Source: Squalus acanthias (taxonomy: Eukaryota). From it: DNA of 64,000 bases. The stretch spans positions 110,796,001 through 110,860,000 of the forward strand of contig CM059431.1 of assembly GCA_030390025.1 (NCBI GenBank). The letters run 5' to 3'. Below the pieces are notes generated by a model. That model was not told the origin of the DNA. It did not search any database and was given only the letters and a program-made list of their open reading frames with translations. The stretch's first letter is position 1. Each line of letters starts with the position of its first letter. Shown piece after piece: positions 32,355 through 47,245 of the stretch. Made by a program: the position numbers and the translations under genes.

Positions 32355-33977
32355 TGTAGAGTTTCGCAATTATCGCGATTCAAATAATATGAGAGAAGCA
32401 GATTCAATTGATCATTTTATTAAACGAAATGCTGTCCTGATAATAAAGGACACAGAAGCCTGTAAAATGGCCACCGCGCATCGTGGCAGAAGCTTCCAGA
32501 GACACAGTGGGCAGACAAGATGGCGTCGAATATACATTCAGTATGAGATCGGATCATACTCGGTACACATTGAAAAGGCAGGATGCAACCCGTTTGCATC
32601 CTGAACAATAGCAATGATATAAGTGCTGGAATCGTTTCCTACGCACAGTAAGGATCATTGAACTGGGCCATCGAGAACCCATCCAGACACATCAATACAC
32701 AAATACCCCCCCGGCTCAACAATGAGAGAGACATTGGCGGGTGATTAAGCCAGTATTCGGGGGGCCCCAAAACCAGTCGAGGAGACGATTCATACACATC
32801 CTGGCTGGCTCAACAATGGAGAAGGTATTAACGGATAGTTGACCAGTTTCAGGTGTTACCGAAACCCGTTAAGAAGATAATCGCCCCATGCTGGGAGTTT
32901 TTGGGCGCCAAAATCACACAAAGAATAAACGTTTAGATTTGAGCGGGAGATAAGGCCGACAAAACAGTATAACTATAGAGGACAAATGTCCATCGGTCTC
33001 TTGACTCTCTCTCTCTCTTCCTGGACTCTTCCTTGACTCTCTCTCTCTCGGGCTGGACCCTCTCGGGCTCGCTTGGCTCTTGACTCTTCGCCGTGCTGGT
33101 CGGTTATTCGAGTGTTGGGTGGAGCTCAATCGGAACGAGCCGCCTCGACAGGGCAAGTAACAGGATACACCATCCCGAGCGTCGGTAAACGGTGTCCGGA
33201 CCCAGGGGCCCGAGTAACCAGAAGAAAGACGAGAAGAAAGACGAGAAGAAATTCCACGTGCCGCCGCGGTCAGTAAACCCCGACCGCGCCCGAAGTTATA
33301 ACGACAGAATCCATCTTTGAATTCTACAGACTACTACACGAACCGTTTTCTTTGAATTCTACGGACTACTCCACGATCCGGTCTGAATCCATCGACCACT
33401 TCATGACATCAAGGAATCTGGCTTACCTTTCATGGCAGCGAGAGTAAACAAGTGGGGTGCAGAAACCCTTACAACCACGTGACAGTCAGGCGCTGCAGCG
33501 AAACGAGCTGAGTGCCTCACTTTAAATTTCCGAAGTGAGCCGAGTGGTGAGCATGTTTTCCGATCCTACAAATCCAGACGTAGTTTAGGTATATTGAGGG
33601 AGGGTGGTTTTTCTAAGGTTAATGTATAATGTGTTCCCCCTTTTACGATGTGTCGTGTGTTCCCCATTTCCATAGACCAAGTTTTATGAACGTGTGTATA
33701 CTTGTACTCTCTTTGATCTGCGCCTATGACATGTATTTCATGATTTTAGATGCCATGCAATAAAGACATTCATTTCGTGCTATTCAACCAGGTCTATTTG
33801 AGTCTTTTTTTCTCTGCATTACTGCTCCTTGCATCTAAGTCCAGGTGTCAGAACCGTAAGGGCGAGTGGGTCGAACCACTCACAGGTGCTTATTGCAAAA
33901 GTCTGGCCGGAGACCAGAGCAAGCAATAGTATAGGCAACGAAGGCCTCACCTCGCACCAGTACCGTGACCCCTTACA
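32355..33977 (+). repeat. 5' LTR (1623 bp)
   Basis: Starts TGTAGAG and ends CCTTACA. Direct repeat of 44028-45650 (offset 11673) with about 13 substitutions counted by eye. AATAAA at 33759-33764. Confidence 0.97.
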
Positions 33978-33981
33978 GAAA

Positions 33982-35804
33982 ATGGCGACCGCAGCAGGAC
34001 CCTGGCAGCAAGAGAGTAATGTCTTAGACCCAGGTTTGAATAAACTAAATGTAATGGAAGAAAAGGTAGCCGACTATGTGTTTGGGAAAGTAAACCTGAC
34101 CAAACAGTGGATATGTGACCTACTGACGGATAGGCGTCCGCTAGACGCCGCCATCAGATGGACAGGTAGCAAAGATCATAAGAAGTCGGTAGAGAAAGCG
34201 GTCTGGCTGATGTGCTACAAGAAGCAAGTCCAACTTTCGGACCAGGTCATTGCAGCACAGGCAGCTCAGATCAGGAATTAGAAACAGAGATGGAGGAAAA
34301 GGTTACGGGAGGACAGAGACTGATTGCATCACTGAATGCGTTGCATCAGGAACGCCAAATAGTAGCCAACCACCACGAGACTAGGATCGATTACTTAGAA
34401 TGTCAGGTCACGGAAGCAAAATTAAGTGAGGGAAGGATTAAAGAACGGTGTATCCGCCTAGCTAACCAGATAAAGGCCCAGGAAGAAAGTTTGAGGGGAG
34501 TTAGGGCGGCATACAAGATGGCTCTCGAGGATAGGCATGAGGGAGCCGACCACAGTGTTTGCCAGAGGGAGATAGAGAACCTGAGAGAGGCCCTGAATAA
34601 GGCAAACGGCTTGGTGTGTCTCATCAGCCCGTCAGCGAGCCAGCCACAGGTAGGTAGGGAATTCCCAAAATCCCTACCGGGAAAAGCAGATGTGGTATCA
34701 ACCACTAAGCCCTCCGCGCCACCCAGCTATACAGAAACCTGGGTAGGGGAGGAAGTGGTGGAAATAGAGAAGAAGGTTCCCGAGGTAGGACAATCCCCGG
34801 AGGTAGTGTCGAGACCGGGACCGATGTGTCCGGTCCGAGGTCATAAGAGAGGCCCGAATGGGAACAATGGGGAAGACGGGGACATCCTGAACCAACTTGT
34901 AGTGCCCCACAGCTCACAGCAGCTGAGGGCAATGATCAGCCATGTCCGGAAGCTGTCCGAGTCAGGAGACCCTTCCGTGCATTTTAGAGAAGTAGAACAG
35001 ACCGCAGCGGTTAATGGCTGCGACAACGAGGAAAAGACCAAGATGTTGCTGTTCTCTTTAGATAGCTCAATCCTTCAGTGTCTCTCCGATGAGAGCAAGA
35101 GGGGAGCTAAGGGCTATGGGGATTTACGGGACGAGGTCCTAGAAGTGTTGGGGGCGGATGACGAAGGTCCGTTCGTCAGACTGGGTCAGACCGTGCAGAT
35201 GGAGCGAGAACCCCCACGGGTTTTCGCCGAAAGACTGTGGCCAGTATACCAGCGTAGCTGCCCAGGTGCGCCAGAGCGCCGCTACCTGGACGGTACCGGG
35301 AAAGCTCATTGGCTCAGGTGCATAGTAGCCAACAGCTTGCCAGCCGTCAGGGAGCAGGCCAGAGCGTGGTTTGATCCCACCAACCCCGAGACAACGGAGG
35401 AGTCTGTCCTGAGTCACCTCACCATAGGGTATCGGAACACTAGAAGCACGGGAGCGCGTCCCCTTAAGGGAAAGGTGCATGAAGCAAAGACAACAGCTCC
35501 GGCTCAGAAAGAGTGGCATCAGGAGGGAAATCGCGCCCCACAAACCAGTAGTGTTTGTTACGGGTGCGGGAAGGCAGGTCACTGGCGTAAAAACTGTAGG
35601 AATCCCTGGAAGGACTCCAGGGAAAAAGCTCCCGCAGTCCGAGCCCAAACGCCTGTCTCTGAGAGAGGAGCTGGTGTGCCTATCCATCCCGACGCGATCG
35701 AATCAATGTTAGGAGCCATGCGGTCTATTATGATTTCGCACGGGAGAGTGGCAGTCTTTACCGGCCCCACAGATGCCACAACCCCGCCCACCAGTACCCA
35801 ATGA
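33982..35804 (+). pseudogene. gag: gag (one frameshift near 34275)
   Basis: ORF 33829-34281 (from ATG 33982 or 34054) joins ORF 34212-35804 by restoring one base (IR|ELETE). Coiled-coil N-terminus, PSAPPSY at 34710-34730, capsid-like region, CCHC knuckle CYGCGKAGHWRKNC at 35556-35597. Confidence 0.88.
33983..34000 (+). promoter_or_regulatory. Primer binding site, probably tRNA-Arg(TCG)
   Basis: TGGCGACCGCAGCAGGAC lies 5 nt after the LTR. It matches 17/18 to the complement of the 3' end of vertebrate tRNA-Arg(TCG) as I recall it (...GTCCTGCCGCGGTCG-CCA); the mismatch is at a CpG. Confidence 0.8.
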
Positions 35805-38800
35805 CTAAAGCCCGCGCAGCCCGTCTATCTGTGTCCGCTCAGCTATGATGTGTGGAAAAGACCCCTGGTGGAGATGGAGGTAGAGAAGCAGAAGGGTAGT
35901 TACTTGTTGGACATGGGAGCTTCATGCACCGTGATTCATACAGATAGCCCCTTTGACTCACCACTGTCTACCAAGGTCCCATTCACATTAGCAGGGTTCA
36001 CAGGAAAAGAGCAGGCTGGCGCATTCTCCATTCCGCTCTCCATTCATTTAGGAGCACTCCACACCACATGGAAGTGCATCCTGATGAAATGGCAAGAGGG
36101 GGGTGGCAAAGGTATCCTCGGATCGGATCTCCTAGCGGAACACGGGATCCTCGTGGACCTTAGGAATCACTGTCTCTGGGGAGCCAAGGGTGGGAAAGGC
36201 AAGGTAGTTGTAATCCCAGGGAAGGAAGGAAAAGGGGCCCTGTGTACCATGAAGCCATCCGGAGGTTACGACCTCGGGCTTATGGTCGCGGATGTCCCAA
36301 CGGACATGCAAACGTACGTGTCAGATAATATGCACGCGTTTGCAACCCACAAGCACGATTGTGGAAGGGTTACCGGGTTTGAGGTCAGCGTAGACGGGGA
36401 CCCCATGACCCGACCCCAAAAGCAGTATAACTTCCCCAAAGAAGCAGAACCCGACATGGAGACAGCAATGTCCTCATTGGTGCAGCAGGGCGTGTTGAGA
36501 CCGATAGCCACACACGTGAACTCCCCATTATGGCCGGTAAGGAAGCCGGATAATTCATGGAGGGCCACGGTGGACTACAGAGTCCTTAACAGTAACATCC
36601 CCGCCTGCGCGCCCACAGTAGCAGCAGTTGCTGACCTAATAGGGAGTATCCCAGCGTCCGCGACCACGTTCACGGTGCTGGATATCTCGAACGGTTTTTG
36701 GTCCATCCCGTTGCGGCGAGAGGACCAGTACAAGTTTGCCTTTACTTTCAAAGGACAACAGTACACATGGAACTGTTTGCCACAGGGTTTTCACAACAGC
36801 CCCAGTATTTTCCATCAGTGTATGGCAGGAAGTTTAAAGGAGTTTAGTCAGCCCAATCAGATAGTGCAGTACGTGGACGACTTGCTCCTGTTCACAGACT
36901 CAAGGGAGGAGCATGGACCACTGTTAGCCGAGTTATTGGAGCTGCTAGCGAGAAAGGGTTTTAAAGTTAACCCTAAGAAAGCACGGATCGGTCAGCAGGA
37001 AGTAAAATTCCTGGGTCTGACCATTCGCGCTGGGGAAAGAGCCATAGATAAGGCTAGGAGGGAGTCGGTGCAGGAGTTACCGATTCCCAACACCATAACG
37101 GGTGTGAGGTCCTTTCTGGGACTGACCAGGTACTGCAGAGACTTCATCGAGGACTATGCGGCCACAGCAGCCCCGCTGCTCCGACTCCTCCATAAGGGAG
37201 TGGAGTGGTCTTGGGACGAGGGTTGTCAGGCAGCATTCGAGAAGTTAAAAAGGGATCTGCAGACCGCGCCAGCTTTAGGGGCCATAGATGGGGGGAAGGA
37301 GTTTTTCCTGGAGGTAGCTGCCAGCGGAGACAGCTTGAGCGCCGTGCTGCTCCAAGAGCGTCACGGCAGGCTGAGGCCAGTTGTTTATTCATCCAGGGTG
37401 TTAACGGATGTGGAAAGGAGTTTTTCCAACTGCGAAAGGCATCTTTTAGCCACGCATTGGGCTGTGAAAAGATCAGCGATCTTCACAGGGCTCTCTCCCA
37501 TCACTCTCCTCACCCATCACACGCCAACCAAGATGCTTCTGGATGGGAGGATTAAGGATGGGACCGTAAGCAGCGCTCGCATTGCGCGCTGGACCCTTCT
37601 CCTTTGCCAGATAGATCTCAGAGTTAAAGGTCTTTGCGAGCCCAAGCTCGCGGCCAACCTGGTATACCCCGGAACAGCCCACCGGTGTTCGGTTGAAGGG
37701 GTGTGGGAGGTCAACATAGGTTTGTGGGCCGGGATACATCCCACGGGCCGCGAGATTTATGTCGATGGTTCCAGCACAGTGTCCGCTGGCGAACGACTCA
37801 CAGGGTGTGGAGTTTATGACCCTGCGGCAGACCTTGCCTTGGCAATTAAACTCCCCAGCACCATGAGCGCGCAGCAGGCTGAGCTGTCTGCGGTGGCGTA
37901 CATAGTTACCCACCCAGAGATCTTCCCAACTCCATACACGATTTGTTCGGACAGTATGTTTACGTACAATTCGTGTACGGAATACCTGGCCATTTGGTCC
38001 CGCCGTGGTTACACCTCCGCGGACGGGCGACCTTTAACGGTGAAGCCCTTGCTGGAAAAGATCCTAGCAGCAGTGGGGGAGGAAGGGGAGATTTTCATCC
38101 ACAAGGTGAAGGCTCACTCCTCCACCGAACCCCGCGGGGAGGGCAACCAGCAGGCGGATGCGCTAGCCAGGGAGGGTGCCCGTAACGGCATTTTCTGGGA
38201 CCCCTATGGACCCGGACCCGTGGCAGCGATCCAAGGCAGGGAAGGGAATCCCGGGAACACCAGGGTAGCACTGCCCCTAGACCTCAAGACCGTCCAGAGC
38301 CAGGATCCCGCCCTAAAGGCAGTTCTCAGAACTATTACTGAGGGCAAGCATGTAGAGGGCCCGTACAGTACGGCAACCCTCTCCGTTAAAGAAGGCATGC
38401 TGTTCCACGAGGAACAGTGGGTTGTGCCGCAGCAGCACAGGAGGGAATTCCTCCAGCTGGCTCATGAGGGGCCAGGGGCAGGACACCCCGGGCCTGAGGT
38501 TACCTGGCAACGGGTAGAGCAGGCGTGATGGTGGCCGGGACTCAGGGATCAGGTCCACGAGTTCTGTGCAAGCTGTCTTGTGTGCGCTGCCAACAACCCA
38601 GACCCCCAGAAAAGGAAAGTGCACATGGGGCACATCAGGAGGGTGGAGGGACCATGGCAGTCGATACAAGTCGATTAAATAGGGCCCCTGCCCACCACCC
38701 AGGGAGGCTATAAATACTGCCTCGTCCTGGTGGATGTGTTTTCCAAGTGGGTAGAAGCCTTTCCCTGTAGAACAGCTACGGCGCTGGGTACTGCCAAGAT

Positions 38801-40118
38801 CTTGGTCCGGGAAGTGTTCTCGCGGTGGGGACTCCCCCGTTTCATGGAGTCAGACCAAGGGAGTCACTTCACCGGCCAGGTGATGCAGAACACCCTCATG
38901 CTTTTGGGCATTGAAGGGAAGTGGCACGTAGCGCACAATCCCCAGTCATCAGGGATTGTTGAACGCATGAACCGGACCCTCAAGGAAAAACTGAGGAAAG
39001 AGACTATGAACTCGCCCCAAAAATGGGCGGAGGTCCTGCCTCTAGTCCTCATGGGAATCCGGGCCAGCCAGTCGAAGAGTACGGGGTATTCCCCGTACGA
39101 GGTGATGACTGGGAGGATCATGCGAACCCCCACCCATGTACTAGCCCCGGTGCTCACTGAGGATCAGCTCCAAGAGGTGAAACGGGACAAGTTTGTCCAG
39201 ACCCTCTTGGAACGCCTGAAGCAGGTTTACGAGCAGGCGGCTGGGAACATGGGAAGACAGCATCAGGGCAATCGCCTGTTGCTGGAACCCCGTAAGAAGC
39301 AGGAGTGGGAAGTCGGAGATCAGGTCATGGTTAGGAACTATGCCAGAGTAGGGAGTTTGGAGCCGCTGTATATGGGACCCTACAGTATTGTAGAGAAGGC
39401 GAGTCCCATGGTGTATGCCGTAAAGGTACCCCGGCGCACAAAATGGTTCCACATTAACCAGTGCAAGCTGTATAAACCGGGTGCACAGGGGCCAATCACA
39501 GGGGCCAAACCTGCGAGTGGGGACTCTCAGCCCCGGGTAGAACCGCAGGGCACACAGGCCGGTAAAGCAGCCTGCGTGAGGGGAGAGGACATTCTGGAAA
39601 AGTGTAGGATCTTTTCTTTTTCTTGGGATTCAGATGAGGAAGCGCTCGGAGGGCTCAACCAAGTTAGTGACCCGGTCGGAGAGGTGGTGGGGTCGGAGGA
39701 TGGAGGTTCCGCCCTCGACCCAAGCATAGGGGAGGTAGGGATTGCGAGCGGAGATCCACTTACTGTAGAAACAAGTAGGGTGGAGTCGGAAACCGCAGAT
39801 CCCGAGCCCAGGGGTGCGGAGCCAGGGGAGACAGAGCCGGCAGCTGTGGTGGGACCACAGGCTGTGACGGTGGGAGTCCCGGTCCCCGGTCCATCGGCCC
39901 TGGAGGCCTTGCCCAAGGTGGCCCTTCGCAGGTCGAGTCGGACACCCCAGCCCAGGAAGTTGTGGTCAGATCCCTCGTACACCCCCAGGCGTAAGTCCAA
40001 GGCAGCCCAGGGAGGTCCCAGTCCCCGCTCGGCAGCGACAGGCTGCGGCGGATCAAAGACAAGGGTCAGTGTCCCCCCGCCACGGGGAACAGCTCGTGGC
40101 AGCCTTTGCAGGATTTAG
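35805..40118 (+). pseudogene. pol: pol polyprotein: protease-RT-RNase H(degenerate)-RNase H-integrase; two in-frame stops (38526, 38676)
   Basis: One reading frame throughout. Motifs: LLDMGAS (protease, DTG>DMG), LPQGFHNSP and YVDD (36870-36881), YVDGSS..AQQAEL..SDS..KVKAH..GNQQADALA, HHCC (AHEGPGAGH..CLVC), VD*IGPLP..SDQGSHF..GIVERMN, GPY module. Confidence 0.95.
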
Positions 40119-40182: not shown

Positions 40183-41076
40183 GGGGTAAAAATTCACTTG
40201 GTTGCGCCTCCCGTTAGCGCCTTAAGAGGGCGCTAATGGGGCGTTAAGCCGCTAACGCCCGGGCGCAGCGCTGTTTGCGCCGCTCGAGAACTTAACTTGA
40301 GATTGTGCGGCGGCGCTAAAACTTACCGCTGCGACCACCTGCGCGCGCAGATTGTGACGTCATTCCATGGTGCAACGCCCTTGGGGCGCCCCGTAGCGGA
40401 AATTGAGTGGCGCCCCCTGCCTTACCGCCTGGCGCTTCCAACGACCGGAAGACTGGAACGTTATCAATCGCTGTGGGGCTGGGGGGGGGCGCTATTTAAA
40501 GGGGGCCTCTTCCTGTCTTTTATTGTTGGTGGCATTTTTGAACTACGCATTCTGAGAGAGAGAGGGAGAGACTTCTGGAGAGATTCAACGTTGTGTGAAG
40601 GAGTTTTGGGTACTGAGCAGCACTTTGCAGGTTCATTTTGATTTGCCATTCCTTGTATCGATTTAGCAGAGACTGTGGGAGCTGCACTCTGAGCTCTTTG
40701 CCTGGTACTCTCCATTGTTCTTTCCAGCATATTTGATGTGCAAGTCTCTCCAGGCCGAGATTCAAGGCTGCAATGAACAGGATGTGGATGGAAAGCAAGA
40801 TTAACCATCCCCTTTAAGAACTGGCCCGTGCCATTGTGTGTGTGTTCCATTGCTGACTGACATTACATGAGCTTCGCCAGCGCTCCGAGTTAGCGCCTCA
40901 CTGCTCGGCCTTTGCGCCTTAAGAGAGGTGTGCAGCGCCTGCTTTAGCGCTCCACTCACCTCCCGGGGCGGTAAAAGTGAAGTTTCCTGTCAGTGCCGAT
41001 AATTAGCGCCAGGCGCTAATATTTGCGTCCAGACGATATTTGCGCCCCAAATGGGGCGCGACCTAATTTCTACCCC
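40183..41076 (+). mobile_element. Non-autonomous PIF/Harbinger element (894 bp) nested between pol and env
   Basis: TIRs GGGGTAAAAATT / AATTTCTACCCC, ATA TSD. Both ends closely match the ends of the 49571-53679 element. Confidence 0.93.
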
Positions 41077-41287: not shown

Positions 41288-43640
41288 ATGGAAAGGATTC
41301 TGGTAGTGCTCGCAACGATCGGATATGGATTGGCCTCTCGGGGCCTCACCAAGGATGTCGTTGTGTTCGGTTGCTCCGGGGACACGGCCCCCATCGCGAC
41401 GGATGGGACCGGGGAGCGAGAGGCTGAGGAAACCGCCACTTATTTCCACAAGGGAAGGTGGCCGGGATGGCTGGGAACGAATTCAACGGAATACTCCAGC
41501 GCATCCGGGTTTGCGTACCAAGAGACTTCTTTACTGTGTCCCAGGGTGAGGATCGTTGCACCCAGAATCAGCGTCACCGTCGGCAAAAGGATTTGTTTGG
41601 TGTGCAATGGGAACGTCCCATTGAGCCGATGGTGGTGGTTACGGAAGTTAAGCAAGACTATGAGAAATTCCTCGGTCGAGTGGGAGCGATTGGGTAACAA
41701 TACCCATCGGACAATTACGGGGACTAACGGACAATTGAGAGTCTGTTGGGACAAATGGTGGGAGCCGGATGAGGGAATATATGTGTGTATGTGGGGATCG
41801 ACGTACGTTTGCCCCAAGGGTATATCCATATTTTTCCTACAACAGTGGCAGGATGCCAGGAAAGGGATGAGGTGGGACGTCAGCTCCTGGGGGTGCGGAG
41901 CTCCATTCTCCCCGATCCCGGTAAATGCCACTGAACTCATCACGCGCCCACGCAAGTCTCCGCCCACGATTCCGGTGGCTTTGGCTCAGGAGGAAGGGTG
42001 CCCTAAAACCACTAAGGGGCCCGGGAATGGTCTGGTACTGGTGCCAACAGATCAGATACTGTATCAAGGGGTACATTACGCGGTGGCCTCGGTGATTCTA
42101 AATCTCACCGAGGTGCATTTGCCAGAATGGTGCCCCAAAGAAACGGAAAAATTGTACCAGGTCCTGTTAACAAACATGTTCAGGCAGTTTTATGAGTTTG
42201 ATTTTGCAGAGGTTGACAAAACAAGCTTATACACCACACCACACGAAGTTTTGGGTCAGGTGGGGAGACAAAGAAGGGGTGCTGTGAACGATGTGTTCAC
42301 TGCTTTTAATACGGGAACATCTGTGGTCAACGCTCTAGATAATGTGGAGCTGCAGACACAGATCAACGGTTTAAAGACACAGTTAAAAAGCATCCTCACA
42401 AACGAGAACAAGGTAGTAGGGTCTGAGTTACATGAGGACCAGGCCATGACACTACACTTAAAAGAGATTATAGCAGAGCTGGAGAAGCATGCGAGAACGG
42501 TAAATGCCCTGATCAGGGAAGATCGAAATGCATCCGATCAAGCTGCGCAGAACGAGGTGTGCGTACTATACGGGGCGTGGTTACTGGGTGAGGGCCGCAG
42601 TAATTTGCAGGATTTAAAACAAGGTTTGGTCCCGTCCTGGATAAGCAACAAACACCTGCAGGCGCTCCACCCTTTTCAGAACGCATTAAGCCCGTGCCAG
42701 CTCAGGCTAGCCTCAGAGGCATACCCAGTCCCAGTGGACTGCGGACAGTCAAATCACACTATCATGGGTATAGTAGTACGGATGCCGGTGTTGGGCGACA
42801 CAGCAAAGCCCGCCCCGGTGTACAGGGTGGAGAACATTGGAGTCATTCAGGGGGGAGCCCACATTCGCTATGCAGCGGTCCCACCTTACGTCATCCGCTG
42901 GGAGCAAACGATGACAGGTACCGACCTCTCGGGTTGTCGTAGCAGGGGAGCACACATCATACTGTGTCCCCAGCACTTGAATGCCTTTTTAATACCACAA
43001 TGCGGGTTCAGAACGGCTGGCTGCGAAGTCCATGAATTGCACCATGGAAGCAATGACACAAGATCATGTGCCCCCACAGGTGGCATACATCGGGGGTGGA
43101 ACGTATTGCGTTACCACTGCAGCGCAACACTACCAGCATGGACAGCACAGCCGGTGTCCGGTGAGTGACAGCAGTTTCTGTTTTAAACCCAGGGCTGAAG
43201 TTCAAGTGGCACAACAGCGAATTGTCCCAATCCCTGAACCATCTACCGTTCACCTCACTGTAAAAGAGAATTTCACAGACTTGCAGCGATTCGTCGCGCA
43301 TTTCGGGTACATCATTCCCCCTCTCCCTGAACACCGCACCAAGATTTTAAAAGCCGTCATGGTATCACAGAAACATTTTTACACCCTGGAACAGAAGACT
43401 GTAGAGATAGGGGCAGAGGTATTGGACATAGTAACCCCACCGTGGTGGGATCTGTTCACTAATATTGAGGTCCCGTCATGGATCAGGATAGCCTCCCACA
43501 TTTTGGTAGTATGTCAAGTTGTAATTGTAGTGTACCTGTTGTTCGTGCACTGCAAAAGAGGCAAACGCCTCACGAGGCAGGAGAACACAGGGGAGTGGAG
43601 AGAATGTTACGTGCGCGTGAACGAGGAAAGTACCGCGTAA
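41288..43640 (+). pseudogene. env: env: signal peptide, Ig-like domain, class I F-like fusion protein, TM anchor; one frameshift near 43020
   Basis: ORFs 41288-43168 and 43032-43640. Hydrophobic N-terminus, furin site RQRR at 42266-42277 followed by heptad repeats, Cys-rich ectodomain, TM segment ILVVCQVVIVVYLLFV, basic cytoplasmic tail. Confidence 0.88.
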
Positions 43641-44027: not shown

Positions 44028-45650
44028 TGTAGAGTTTCGCAATTATTGCGATTCAAATAATATGAGAGAAGCAGATTCAATTGATAATTTTATTAAACGA
44101 AATGCTGTCCTGATAATAAAGGACACAGAAGCCTGTAAAATGGCCGCCGCGCATCGTGGCAGAAGCTTCCAGAGACACAGTGGGCAGACAAGATGGCGTC
44201 GAATATACATTCAGTATGAGATCGGATCATACTCGGTACACATTGAAAAGGCAGGATGCAACCCGTTTGCATCCTGAACAATAGCAATGATATAAGTGCT
44301 GGAATCGTTTCCTACGCACAGTAAGGATCATTGAACTGGGCCATCGAGAACCCATCCAGACACATCAATACACAAATACCCCCCTGGCTCAACAATGAGA
44401 GAGACATTGGCGGGTGATTAAGCCAGTATTCGGGGGGCCCCAAAACCAGTCGAGGAGACGATTCATACACATCCTGGCTGGCTCAACAATGGAGAAGGTA
44501 TTAACGGATAGTTGGCCAGTTTCAGGTGTTACCGAAACCCGTTAAGAAGATAATCGCCCCATGCTGGGAGTTTTTGGGCGCCAAAATCACACAAAGAATA
44601 AACGTTTAGATTTGAGCGGGAGATAAGGCCGACAAAACAGTATAACTATAGAGGACAAATGTCCATCGGTCTCTTGACTCTCTCTCTCTCTTCCTGGACT
44701 CTTCCTTGACTCTCTCTCTCTCGGGCTGGACCCTCTCGGGCTCGCTTGGCTCTTGACTCTTCGCTGTGCTGGTCGGTTATTCGAGTGTTGGGTGGAGCTC
44801 AATCGGAACAAGCCGCCTCGACAGGGCAAGTAACAGGGTACACCATCCCGAGCGTCGGTAAACGGTGTCCGGACCCAGGGGCCCGAGTAACCAGAAGAAA
44901 GACGAGAAGAAAGACGAGAAGAAATTCCACGTGCCGCCGCGGTCAGTAAACCCCGACCACGCCCGAAGTTATAACGACAGAATCCATCTTTGAATTCTAC
45001 AGACTACTACACGAACCGTTTTCTTTGAATTCTACGGACTACTTCACGATCCGGTCTGAATCCATCGACCACTTCATGACATCAAGGAATCTGGCTTACC
45101 TTTCGCGGCAGCGAGAGTAAACAAGTGGGGTGCAGAAACCCTTACAACCACGTGACAGTCAGGCGCTGCAGCGAAACGAGCTGAGTGCCTCACTTTAAAT
45201 TTCCGAAGTGAGCCGAGTGGTGAGCATGTTTTCCGATCCTACAAATCCAGACGTAGTTTAGGTATATTGAGGGAGGGTGGTTTTTCTAAGGTTAATGTAT
45301 AATGTGTTCCCCCTTTTACGATGTGTCGTGTGTTCCCTATTTCCATAGACCAAGTTTTATGAACGTGTGTATACTTGTACTCTCTTTGATCTGCGCCTAT
45401 GACATGTATTTCATGATTTTAGATGCCATGCAATAAAGACATTCATTTCGTGCTATTCAACCAGGTCTATTTGAGTCTTTTTTTCTCTGCATTACTGCTC
45501 CTTGCATCTAAGTCCAGGTGTCAGAACCGTAAGGGCGAGTGGGTCGAACCACTCACAGGTGCTTATTGCAAAAGTCTGGCCGGAGACCAGAGCAAGCAAT
45601 AGTATAGGCAACGAAGGCCTCACCTCGCACCAGTACCGTGACCCCTTACA
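44028..45650 (+). repeat. 3' LTR (1623 bp)
   Basis: Same length and termini as the 5' LTR. Preceded by the purine-rich tract and followed by the ATGT TSD. AATAAA at 45432-45437. Confidence 0.97.
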
Positions 45651-45916
45651 ATGTGTACATTTAACTTCATGTTTGAAGAAAAAGGGAACTTGCACTTACA
45701 GCGTCTTTCATGACCGCAAGATGTCCCAAAGCCAATGAAATACTTTTGAAGTGCAGTCACTGTTGTAATGTAGGAAATGCGGCAGCCAGTTTGTGCACAG
45801 CAAGCTCCCACTAACAGCAATATGATAATGACCAGATCCAATAAAGATGCACTGGTATGCAAATGTCATGCTCAGGGTGATGTGGGCGAGTAGTATGTTG
45901 GAGCATCAATGTGCTG

Positions 45917-46740
45917 AGCCATGGAGCAGTAATGTGCAGGGCCATGGAGCAGTAATGTGCAGGGCCATGGAGCGGTACTGTGCAGGGCCATGGAGCGGTA
46001 CTGTGCAGGGCCATGGAGCGGTAATGAGCAGGGCCATGGAGCGGTAATGAGCAGGGCCATGGAGCGGTAATGAGCAGGGCCATGGAGCGGTAATGAGCAG
46101 GGCCATGGAGCGGTAATGAGCAGGGCCATGGAGTGGTAATGAGCAGGGCCATGGAGTGGTAATGAGCAGGGCCATGGAGTGGTAATGAGCAGGGCCATGG
46201 AGCGGTAAAACATAGGGCCATGGAGCGGTAATGTGCAGGGCCATGGAGCGGTACTGAGCAGGGCCATAGAGTGGTAATGAGCAGGGCCATGGAGCGGTAA
46301 AACACAGGGCCATAGAGTGGTTATGCACAGGGCCATGGAGCGGTAACATGCAGGGCCATAGAGTGGTTATGCACAGGGCCATGGAGTGGTACTGAGCAGG
46401 GCCATAGAGTGGTTATGCACAGGGCCATGGAGTGGTAATGTGCAGGGCCATGGAGCAGTACTGAGCAGGGCCATGGAGTGGTTATACACAGGGCCATGGA
46501 GCGGTAATGTGCAGGGCCATAGAGTGGTTATGCACAGGGCCATGGAGCGGTACTGAGCAGGGTCATGGTGCGGTAATGAGCAGGGCCATGGAGCGGTAAT
46601 GTGCAGGGCCATGGAGCGGTAATGAGCAGGGCCATAGAGTGGTAATGAGCAGGGCCATGGAACGGGTATGTACAGGGCCATGGAGCAGTAACGCACAGGG
46701 CCATGGAATGGTTTAACACAGTGCCATGGAGTGGTTATGC
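45917..46740. repeat. 23-bp minisatellite, ~36 units
   Basis: Unit CAGGGCCATGGAGCGGTAATGAG with patterned variants. Confidence 0.95.
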
Positions 46741-46849
46741 TGCGCACGCCCCATCTGGTGAACTTCTGAATATCAGCCTTGCCATTCAGGGAGGCATTAA
46801 GTGGAGGGCAGATGGTTCACCCTGGGGAGAGTGAAAAAAGAATCAGTGG

Positions 46850-47245
46850 GATCTCTTGAGTACAGAAGATTAAGAGGTGATCTAATTGAAGTGTTTAAGA
46901 TGATTAAAAGACTTGATAGGGTAGATAGAGAGAAACTATTTCCTCTGGTGGGGGAGTCCAGAACAAGGGGGCATAACCTTAAAATTAGAGCTAGGCTGCT
47001 CAGGGGTATATCAGCTGGCACTTTTTCACACAAAGGGTAGTGGAAATCCTGAACGCTCTCCCAAAAAGAGGCTGGGGGTCAATTGAAAATTTCAAAATTG
47101 AAATTGATAGGTTTTTGCTAGACAAGGGGTATTAAGGGATATGGAACCAAGGTGGGTAAACAGAGTTAAGACACTGATCAGCCATGATCTAATTGAATGG
47201 TTGAACAGGCAAGAGGAGCTGAATGGCCTCATCCTGTTCCTATGG
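46850..47245 (+). mobile_element. CR1 3' fragment
   Basis: RRLRGDLIEVFK..RTRGHNLKI. Confidence 0.8.

Follow-up and report, generated by a model that had tools for sequence, protein, structure and literature searches.

Fusion (F) proteins of paramyxoviruses and pneumoviruses (Pfam family PF00523) consist of a short N-terminal subunit, a furin site, a fusion peptide, heptad repeat A, a long body and a membrane anchor. Paramyxoviral F works with a separate attachment protein and is not known to carry an immunoglobulin (Ig) module at its N-terminus. Among retroviral envelope (Env) proteins, the receptor-binding domain of the gammaretroviral surface subunit (SU) of murine and feline leukaemia viruses (MLV/FeLV) was reportedly found by Fass et al. 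in 1997 to be an Ig-like beta-sandwich. According to a published framework (Sci Adv 2024, PMC11468914), the Ig-like domain II of F itself is located in the C-terminal subunit, and the F fold takes up receptor-binding modules either N-terminally, as in coronavirus spike, or as insertions, as in foamy virus Env. Lokiretrovirus Env proteins (Wang and Han, Mol Biol Evol 2021, PMC7947760) have a signal peptide, a basic cleavage site, a fusion peptide, a coiled coil, an anchor and a long membrane-anchored subunit. In that paper the features marked on the Env model are a signal peptide, a fusion peptide, a coiled coil, a transmembrane segment and an RXKR site only, and lokiretroviruses are reported from none of the six cartilaginous-fish genomes surveyed; the words immunoglobulin, cartilaginous and shark are absent from its text. 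The window analysed here, a 64,000-nucleotide stretch of the Squalus acanthias genome (GCA_030390025.1, contig CM059431.1, positions 110,796,001 to 110,860,000), contains a complete provirus, from long terminal repeat (LTR) to LTR, in whose Env about 220 residues lie between the signal peptide and the fusion-protein core, with an Ig-like domain as their structured centre.

Amino acids (aa) 84-175 of this Env probably form a V/I-like Ig-type module, viral and accessory in nature, which is carried on an F-type core and most likely serves as a receptor-binding head. The parts of the env gene are as follows.

41288..43168, + strand: env open frame in the window copy, 626 codons (open reading frame, ORF)
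41288..41335, + strand: signal peptide, aa 1-16 (hydrophobic N-terminus; cleavage point inferred, not computed)
41336..41536, + strand: conserved N-terminal segment, aa 17-83 (12 of 18 invariant columns are here; AlphaFold2 confidence, pLDDT, <30)
41537..41812, + strand: Ig-like domain, aa 84-175 (motifs, profiles, models, conservation)
41813..41998, + strand: linker, aa 176-237, Trp-rich then Pro/Thr-rich (composition)
41999..42277, + strand: start of the fusion-protein core (F2-like), aa 238-330 (from the C-P...G-L-V-L junction to the furin-type site)
42266..42277, + strand: furin-type cleavage site RQRR, aa 327-330 (read from the sequence)
42278..43021, + strand: fusion peptide, heptad repeat A and body of the membrane-anchored subunit, aa 331 on (hydrophobic fusion peptide, heptad repeat)
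43022..43022, + strand: 1-nt length difference from 38 of 47 other copies (env frame lost from about codon 579)
43032..43640, + strand: C-terminal part of env in another frame (membrane anchor at 43488-43559; matches the C-terminus of relative P0001)

The initial annotation placed an Ig-like domain after the signal peptide and ahead of the fusion module of Env, and this order is borne out by the sequence. The interval 41537-41800, corresponding to env codons 84-171, contains RISVTVGKRICLVC, WWWLR, GQLRV and DEGIYVC in that order, between the signal peptide and the RQRR site, so that the quoted strings and the triad of Cys, Trp and D-x-G-x-Y-x-C are present as described. C106 and C167 lie 61 residues apart, within the spacing of about 55-75 expected of Ig core cysteines; W115-117 and D161-C167 occupy the places of the C-strand Trp, which in Ig domains follows the first Cys by about 10-15 residues, and the F-strand D-x-G-x-Y-x-C, and share alignment columns with the Ig domains of CRTAM and VEGFR2. 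When all six frames of the window are translated, C-x(9,16)-W-x(35,60)-D-x-G-x-Y-x-C is seen a single time, at this domain, compared with a mean of 0.015 occurrences per window in 200 mononucleotide shuffles. Six cysteines (84, 103, 106, 153, 167 and 175) and two candidate N-glycan sequons (N127 and N137) are found in the domain. The Pro/Thr-rich linker noted earlier is also there (aa 205-245, nine Pro and five Thr in 41 residues), and it leads into a junction motif at aa 238-251, with C-P at 238 and G-P-G-N-G-L-V-L at 244. The 12 of 18 columns that are invariant across seven relatives and fall in the N-terminal segment run from P35 to Y77, around GRWPGWLG.NS..YSS. This segment (aa 17-83) is conserved at least as well as the Ig-like domain, with a ratio of non-synonymous to synonymous substitution (dN/dS) of 0.27; it has no predicted fold, and in the searches made it matched nothing.

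Profile searches, protein language-model features and predicted structures of the domain all led to Ig domains, and the fold is supported, if weakly, by their agreement. Pfam Ig_3 aligned to the window domain over profile positions 5-74 of 78 (E 0.078 or 0.042) and matched five of seven relatives (best E 0.0014). With the whole Env and eight relatives as queries, Ig_3 was the one Ig or F0 family that Pfam reported at E<=1, at E 0.31 for the N-terminal piece and 0.0085 for P0008. A profile of seven sequences of the domain matched five sequences from the Protein Data Bank (PDB), four of them Ig proteins, including MXRA8 and DIP-eta, and one unrelated; CRTAM IgV (4h5s/3rbg) was aligned over its full length (E 0.015 and 0.026). 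Most informative was a joint profile of 13 sequences, comprising the window clade, a Chiloscyllium clade typified by protein P0015, other Env families in the host assembly and sequences from two frogs. In the joint MAFFT alignment one column each is taken up by the Gly that precedes strand B, by the Cys of that strand and by the Trp of strand C, and two motifs, B-strand G...C-x(1,2)-C-x-G-N and W-x-x-[WF]-W-x(4)-G-x(3)-C, came into register between the two shark clades without guidance. This profile matched 1157 PDB sequences at E<=10, of which the best 60 were all members of the Ig superfamily (VEGFR2 2.3e-5, titin 8.4e-5, DSCAM 4.5e-4, SIRP-alpha 0.0094, shark V-NAR 0.0095). The Ig signal thus grew from E 0.015 with seven sequences to 2.3e-5 with the distant Env modules added. 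By ESM features the clusters nearest to aa 80-195 were ig, V-set, I-set and Ig_3 (scores 0.89-0.91), and nine of the ten best clusters with a family shared family or clan with the best.

AlphaFold2 (AF2) models of aa 17-251 (seven sequences; mean pLDDT 34) and of aa 78-193 (pLDDT 51) were both all beta, with strands at the places expected for B, C, D, E and F. When the shorter model was compared with the PDB by Foldseek, all 50 rows listed were Ig domains (E 0.02-0.15, probability <=0.98); for the longer model the rows listed were mostly antibody V domains, with several unrelated chains too. VIA-align, an aligner independent of Foldseek, was run against 48,161 representative chains and returned only generic beta-sandwiches, obscurin Ig59 (Z 4.0) and catshark CD8-alpha (Z 3.9) among them. 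Like cellular V/I Ig domains (CRTAM IgV, VEGFR2 domain 3, CD47, SIRP-alpha, shark V-NAR), with which the alignments cover the whole domain, the window domain has a B-strand L-x-C with a Trp 9-11 residues on, and an E-strand L-x-V followed by D-x-G-x-Y-x-C. Unlike them, it has four added cysteines (84, 103, 153 and 175) and a cluster of tryptophans (WWW, and W-D-K-W-W before the F strand); it has no identifiable parent gene, and its cellular matches reach only 18-28 bits.

The module is the main difference between the Envs that bear it and those that do not. Lokiretrovirus Envs were compared by eye, using the 23 consensus proteins of Dataset S1 of PMC7947760, of which 22 have a readable N-terminus (Loki-Lch is partial). 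In each of the 22 the signal peptide runs directly into P-G-P-x-x-G-[IV], and a basic cleavage-type motif follows about 90-125 residues past the signal peptide; three of them have an extra stretch upstream of the signal peptide. This opening of the core resembles, by eye, G-P-G-N-G-L-V-L of the window Env. The pol genes are also alike (reverse transcriptase (RT), tether, RNase H and Integrase_H2C2), and the window Env departs from the lokiretrovirus pattern in the 220 or so residues added between signal peptide and core. Within the core family of the window Env, a full-length eel protein (P0058, Anguilla anguilla, 644 aa) likewise passes from its signal peptide directly into C-P...G-I-V. The domain is therefore not a universal part of this type of Env, a possibility that the initial annotation had raised: its lack in the published lokiretrovirus Envs and in an eel member of the clade identifies it, from these comparisons, as an accessory module.

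Module-bearing relatives were found in several other vertebrates. The 626-residue Env frame was searched with phmmer against 1.84 billion representative proteins, and the 37 matches at E<=0.001 all aligned as Env relatives (35 of the 37 were looked up by name). The named matches were from cartilaginous fishes (Rhinoraja, Pristiophorus, Mustelus, two Chiloscyllium species, Rhincodon, Scyliorhinus and Heterodontus), the frogs Pelodytes and Mantella, and the eel Anguilla; apart from the one eel cluster no ray-finned-fish protein was matched, and thus none from the fish orders rich in lokiretroviruses. No host Ig protein was among the matches at this threshold with the whole Env as query. Domains of the window type, 50-78 % identical, occur in proteins of Rhinoraja, Pristiophorus and Rhincodon and in two further fragments. 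A homologue search for shorter proteins found none, and one using the family alignment gave ten matches, nothing new in kind. Two Pristiophorus japonicus gene models, P0005 and P0003 (annotated as 'zinc finger protein ZFP2-like' and as 'protein Niban 1-like'), are chimeric with pieces of the window Env family; they probably reflect misannotation where a provirus lies within or next to a host gene.

More distant full-length Envs (P0009, P0015, P0032 and P0035) align with the window Env only from its aa 228-236 on. P0015 is Chiloscyllium punctatum GCC29952.1 (UniRef A0A401SHR0), P0032 is from Pelodytes ibericus and P0035 from Mantella aurantiaca, with E-values against the window Env of 1.3e-20, 5.7e-6 and 3e-4, respectively. 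The C-P...G-L junction is present in all four and also in the eel protein P0058 and the host-genome frame L055. P0015, P0032 and P0035 belong to the same core family, with cores only 20-26 % identical, and bear an Ig-like module at the same position, ahead of the C-P junction; they differ from the window Env in that their modules have no sequence similarity to its own that profile comparison could detect, and in N-terminal parts 50-90 residues shorter. A profile of three sequences (the N-terminal pieces of P0015 and of the two frog Envs) found PDGFR-alpha (0.0046) and CD47 (0.007-0.013) in the PDB, and 24 of its 26 matches were named Ig-superfamily chains or antibody light chains. With Pfam, the N-terminal piece of P0015 matched Ig_3/Ig_2 (E 0.12), and those of the frog Envs and P0009 had no match. 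In the Squalus assembly itself there were 40 further matches to the P0015-type module (identity 33-79 %), and the four longer open frames among them that were examined (L055, L056, L058 and L060) have the module followed by an F2-like core, extending in L055 and L056 to the furin site and fusion peptide. These two are near-identical 310-residue frames about 69 kb apart on contig C13, and both end soon after the fusion peptide. The loci L049-L064 make up at least two older host Env families with a P0015-type module, many of them with stops, and in one subfamily the F-strand Cys is apparently lost.

In the 3.7 Gb host assembly, Env aa 1-351 gave 7849 first-look candidates, of which 116 copies were scored, at 92-100 % identity; the endogenous retrovirus family is young and high-copy. 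The window copy and 47 fetched copies were compared in detail. A 783-codon env frame was present in 16 of the 47 fetched copies; for three of the 47 no assessment was possible. The other copies carry the domain: all 48 retain C84, C106, W115-117, C153, G163, Y165, C167 and C175, while C103 and D161 are each retained in 47, and a stop codon within the domain region was seen in two of the 48. Pooled pairwise Nei-Gojobori estimates from 41 copies, in which pairs are not independent and CpG effects are unmodelled, gave a dN/dS of 0.27 for codons 1-83, 0.32 for the domain (codons 84-175), 0.48 for the linker (codons 176-227, the highest of the env parts), 0.17 for codons 228-351, 0.16 for codons 352-575 and 0.22 for codons 1-575 overall. 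Mutations after integration are neutral. The low ratios therefore indicate that selection was acting on Env, and on the domain within it, during most of the divergence, and that the domain was in use by a replicating virus.

The window Env runs in the order of F, with a short N-terminal subunit, basic cleavage site, fusion peptide, heptad repeat A, long body and anchor. The ESM cluster nearest to aa 228-578 was Fusion glycoprotein F0 (score 0.94, 201 of 256 features shared), in which PF00523 is assigned to 47 % of members; the next-nearest clusters were those of Baculo_F and gypsy Env. Part order and language-model features thus fit an F-type class I fusion scaffold for the Env core. Coronavirus spike and foamy virus Env are likewise described in PMC11468914 as a minimal F-type scaffold with a receptor-binding module added; the module here is one small Ig-type domain with a linker, whereas the receptor-binding domain of foamy virus adopts its own fold and forms an insertion ahead of the cleavage site. 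Sequence similarity to spike or foamy virus Env was not found when the whole-Env profile was compared with PDB sequences. The SU head of MLV/FeLV shares the layout of an N-terminal beta-sandwich with a proline-rich linker behind it, likewise in a retroviral Env; it differs in its gamma-type fusion subunit and is not known to have canonical Ig sequence motifs; no search made gave any similarity to its receptor-binding domain.

In the mechanism we propose, aa 84-175 would fold as an Ig-type sandwich stapled by C106-C167, with two additional disulfides probable, perhaps C103-C153 and C84-C175, and the flexible Pro/Thr linker would hold the module above a trimeric core. The module would bind a cell receptor, and binding would release the metastable core after priming by furin. 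A receptor-binding head is inferred because Env is the only glycoprotein gene of the provirus (among the window ORFs no other lies between pol and the 3' LTR), because an F-sized core normally needs an attachment function, and because the position is that of known receptor-binding add-ons. It is the most likely role because the module is N-terminal, with predicted glycans, on a flexible linker and under purifying selection. The module could instead be real and serve mainly as a glycan-bearing shield, an aid to oligomerisation or an immune-modulating mimic of a host Ig receptor. This would suit its two N-glycan sequons, the immune adhesion receptors CRTAM, CD47 and PVR among the nearest solved sequences, and the purifying selection on it, where receptor-binding heads often diversify. 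Such a role is nevertheless improbable, since with Env as the sole glycoprotein some part of it must bind the receptor, and the core without the module is of the size of F, which normally needs a separate attachment protein. The framework of PMC11468914 also puts receptor-binding modules at such a position.

A number of results weigh against an Ig-type module on an F-type core, and they concern the core, the fold and the common origin of the modules in turn. PF00523 was matched by none of 25 Env family members at E<=10 with Pfam, and the whole-Env profile had no match among PDB sequences at E<=10. The likeness of the fusion module to paramyxovirus F is accordingly shown only in architecture and ESM features, not by any Pfam match.

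As to the fold, no single Ig test was significant by its own standard. The best Ig_3 score for the window domain, 14.8 bits, is below the curated gathering cut-off of 30, and the leading E-values of the joint profile belong to multi-domain chains with summed scores, the best for a single domain being 0.34. The PDB is rich in Ig domains and antibodies, which weakens matches of this kind. Both AF2 models are of low confidence and lack a G strand, Foldseek gave nothing at E<=0.001 for either against the PDB, and VIA-align returned generic beta-sandwiches (best Z 5.3) and did not discriminate. These same points are what speaks for a Cys/Trp-rich, beta-rich viral region of some other fold, with the motif arising by chance or convergence. 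We regard that as unlikely, given that Ig is where the Pfam model, both profile searches of the PDB, the language-model features and the Foldseek comparisons of the two models all point, that the signal sharpens as distant Env modules are added, and that the canonical motif spacing is kept in 48 copies and in relatives. The checks by Ig profile and structure prediction gave an Ig_3 match below the cut-off and an all-beta model of low confidence, and the assignment to the Ig superfamily, on which these methods agree, is made up of many weak results. It stands because these are many independent tests in agreement rather than one strong test, and on that footing aa 84-175 very probably have an Ig-type fold.

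As to origin, comparison of modules between Env clades by hhalign was not significant (E 0.73, 0.052, 0.54 and 0.19; a further value of 0.022 covered 15 columns only and was not significant either), so that what speaks for a shared ancestry of the modules is their position, their type of fold and a small number of motifs. In P0009-type Envs (Mustelus, Pristiophorus) the N-terminal region is Cys-rich and without family assignment, and the N-terminal piece had no match in the host genome with that query. It may be that the window clade, the P0015-type clade and the frog Envs gained their modules separately, on an F-type core that readily takes N-terminal domains; in keeping with this, about 140-180 residues precede the core in the distant Envs compared with about 237 in the window Env, and the one eel member is without any module. 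This too seems unlikely, in view of the identical position from signal peptide to C-P junction, the B-strand and Trp-cluster motifs that are in register between two shark clades, and a joint profile sharper than either alone.

Recent capture of a host cartilaginous-fish Ig exon by a fusion protein, to which the canonical motif triad and the gain or loss implied by module-free lokiretroviruses and eel might point, is very improbable, as the phmmer matches at E<=0.001 all align as Env relatives, the best cellular Ig matches are generic, the same domain recurs in a skate, a sawshark and the whale shark, and Envs with highly divergent cores have Ig-like modules in this very position. The captured host domain proposed by the initial annotation thus found no donor, and because skates and sharks share the domain and distant Env lineages have modules in the same place, any capture would be old. 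We rather favour, as part of the reading of a viral accessory module, a feature inherited in an Env clade of sharks, skates and frogs over one acquired in the window copy.

The initial annotation suggested that the architecture was possibly undescribed. In a literature search of openly available papers and preprints, among them PMC7947760 with its Dataset S1, PMC9040795, PMC13709493, PMC13524379, PMC12440569, PMC11468914, PMC9967133 and 10.1101/2021.11.05.467493, no retroviral Env of lokiretrovirus type or F type was found described with an Ig-like domain. The suggestion holds to that extent, but GCC29952.1 already bears the automatic name 'Ig-like domain-containing protein'. An Ig-like module before an F-type fusion core is real and, apparently, not described for published relatives.

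The provirus is flanked on both sides by a duplicated 4 bp sequence, ATGT. Its LTRs are 99.2 % identical (32355-33977 and 44028-45650), and the parts other than env are as follows.

32355..33977, + strand: 5' LTR, 1623 bp, TG...CA (direct repeat of 44028-45650)
34182..35804, + strand: gag, open frame (CCHC zinc knuckle, E 0.002; TGA at 35802-35804)
35805..38528, + strand: pol, with protease region, RT, RNase-H-like tether, RNase H and start of integrase (Pfam)
38844..40118, + strand: remaining integrase, separate open frame (rve profile matched only from profile position 71)
40184..41076, strand not assigned: nested segment of about 0.9 kb between pol and env (absent from 41 of 47 other copies)
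44028..45650, + strand: 3' LTR, 1623 bp, TG...CA (direct repeat of 32355-33977)

The pol gene matched RVT_1 (5e-36), RT_RNaseH_2 (2e-21), RNase_H (1e-19) and Integrase_H2C2 (8e-5) in Pfam, and its nearest solved chains were XMRV/MLV RT-RNase H (1.8e-69), foamy virus PR-RT (2e-63) and Ty3 (3e-41). In the separate frame at 38844-40118 the SH3/C-terminal integrase domains matched weakly. The window copy has two defects, a pol frame broken within the integrase core between 38528 and 38844 and the loss of the env frame at 43022. A single TGA (35802-35804) terminates gag, and pol follows directly in the same frame, which suggests, at the level of the reading frames, that Gag-Pol is made by stop-codon read-through, the means used by gamma- and epsilonretroviruses.

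The nested segment at 40184-41076 looks like a separate and far commoner repeat within the window copy. In the 41 copies without it the flanks overlap by 4 nt at the junction, and in contigs from four public runs its word depth was 2,000-23,000, compared with tens to hundreds for the rest of the provirus. In loci L019 and L028 the match to this segment is on the strand opposite to that of the env-side flank. An array of a 23-bp tandem repeat, of at least 35 units, occupies about 45771-46900, beginning about 120 bp past the 3' LTR, and the long minus-strand ORFs at 45811-46382 are products of this repeat, not genes. Contigs of the same four runs, which are of uncertain kind and cannot show transcription, cover the provirus; a leader-to-env joint was not among the 15 of 23 joints listed from them.

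With regard to the type of virus, pol contains both RT_RNaseH_2 and RNase_H, a dual RNase H as in lokiretroviruses, whose published RT clade is sister to the other retroviruses, and by eye rather than by computation about half of some 66 integrase residues agree with one published lokiretrovirus consensus. No retroviral Env family of Pfam matched the window Env; lokiretrovirus Env, too, is unlike canonical retroviral Env. Foamy viruses are not known to have a Cys-His knuckle in gag and have a long Env leader; a foamy-virus-like identity was set aside, gag having a CCHC knuckle and Env, by eye, an ordinary signal peptide without a long leader. The element may be an epsilon-like virus carrying this type of Env. 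Epsilonretroviral Env is described in 10.1101/2021.11.05.467493 as outside the usual classes and resistant to modelling. Going further, and only tentatively, the provirus could belong to a retroviral clade, as yet without a name, that infects cartilaginous fishes and amphibians, lies apart from the published lokiretroviruses and whose F-type Env would have acquired a host-derived Ig attachment head anciently and would combine attachment and fusion in a single chain. Such a clade would have been active in this host very recently, in view of the similarity of the LTRs and the number of full-length env frames.

The finding alters no principle. It adds cartilaginous fishes, in which the first survey of lokiretroviruses had detected none, to the hosts of non-canonical retroviral envelopes, and the family concerned is very young, present in many copies and rich in open env frames. 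The Env would represent an F-type scaffold fitted with the simplest addition of the receptor-binding type, one Ig-type domain and a linker. Together with its module-free relatives, the lokiretrovirus Envs and that of the eel, it offers a natural series, with and without the module, for the coupling of an F-type core to receptor binding.

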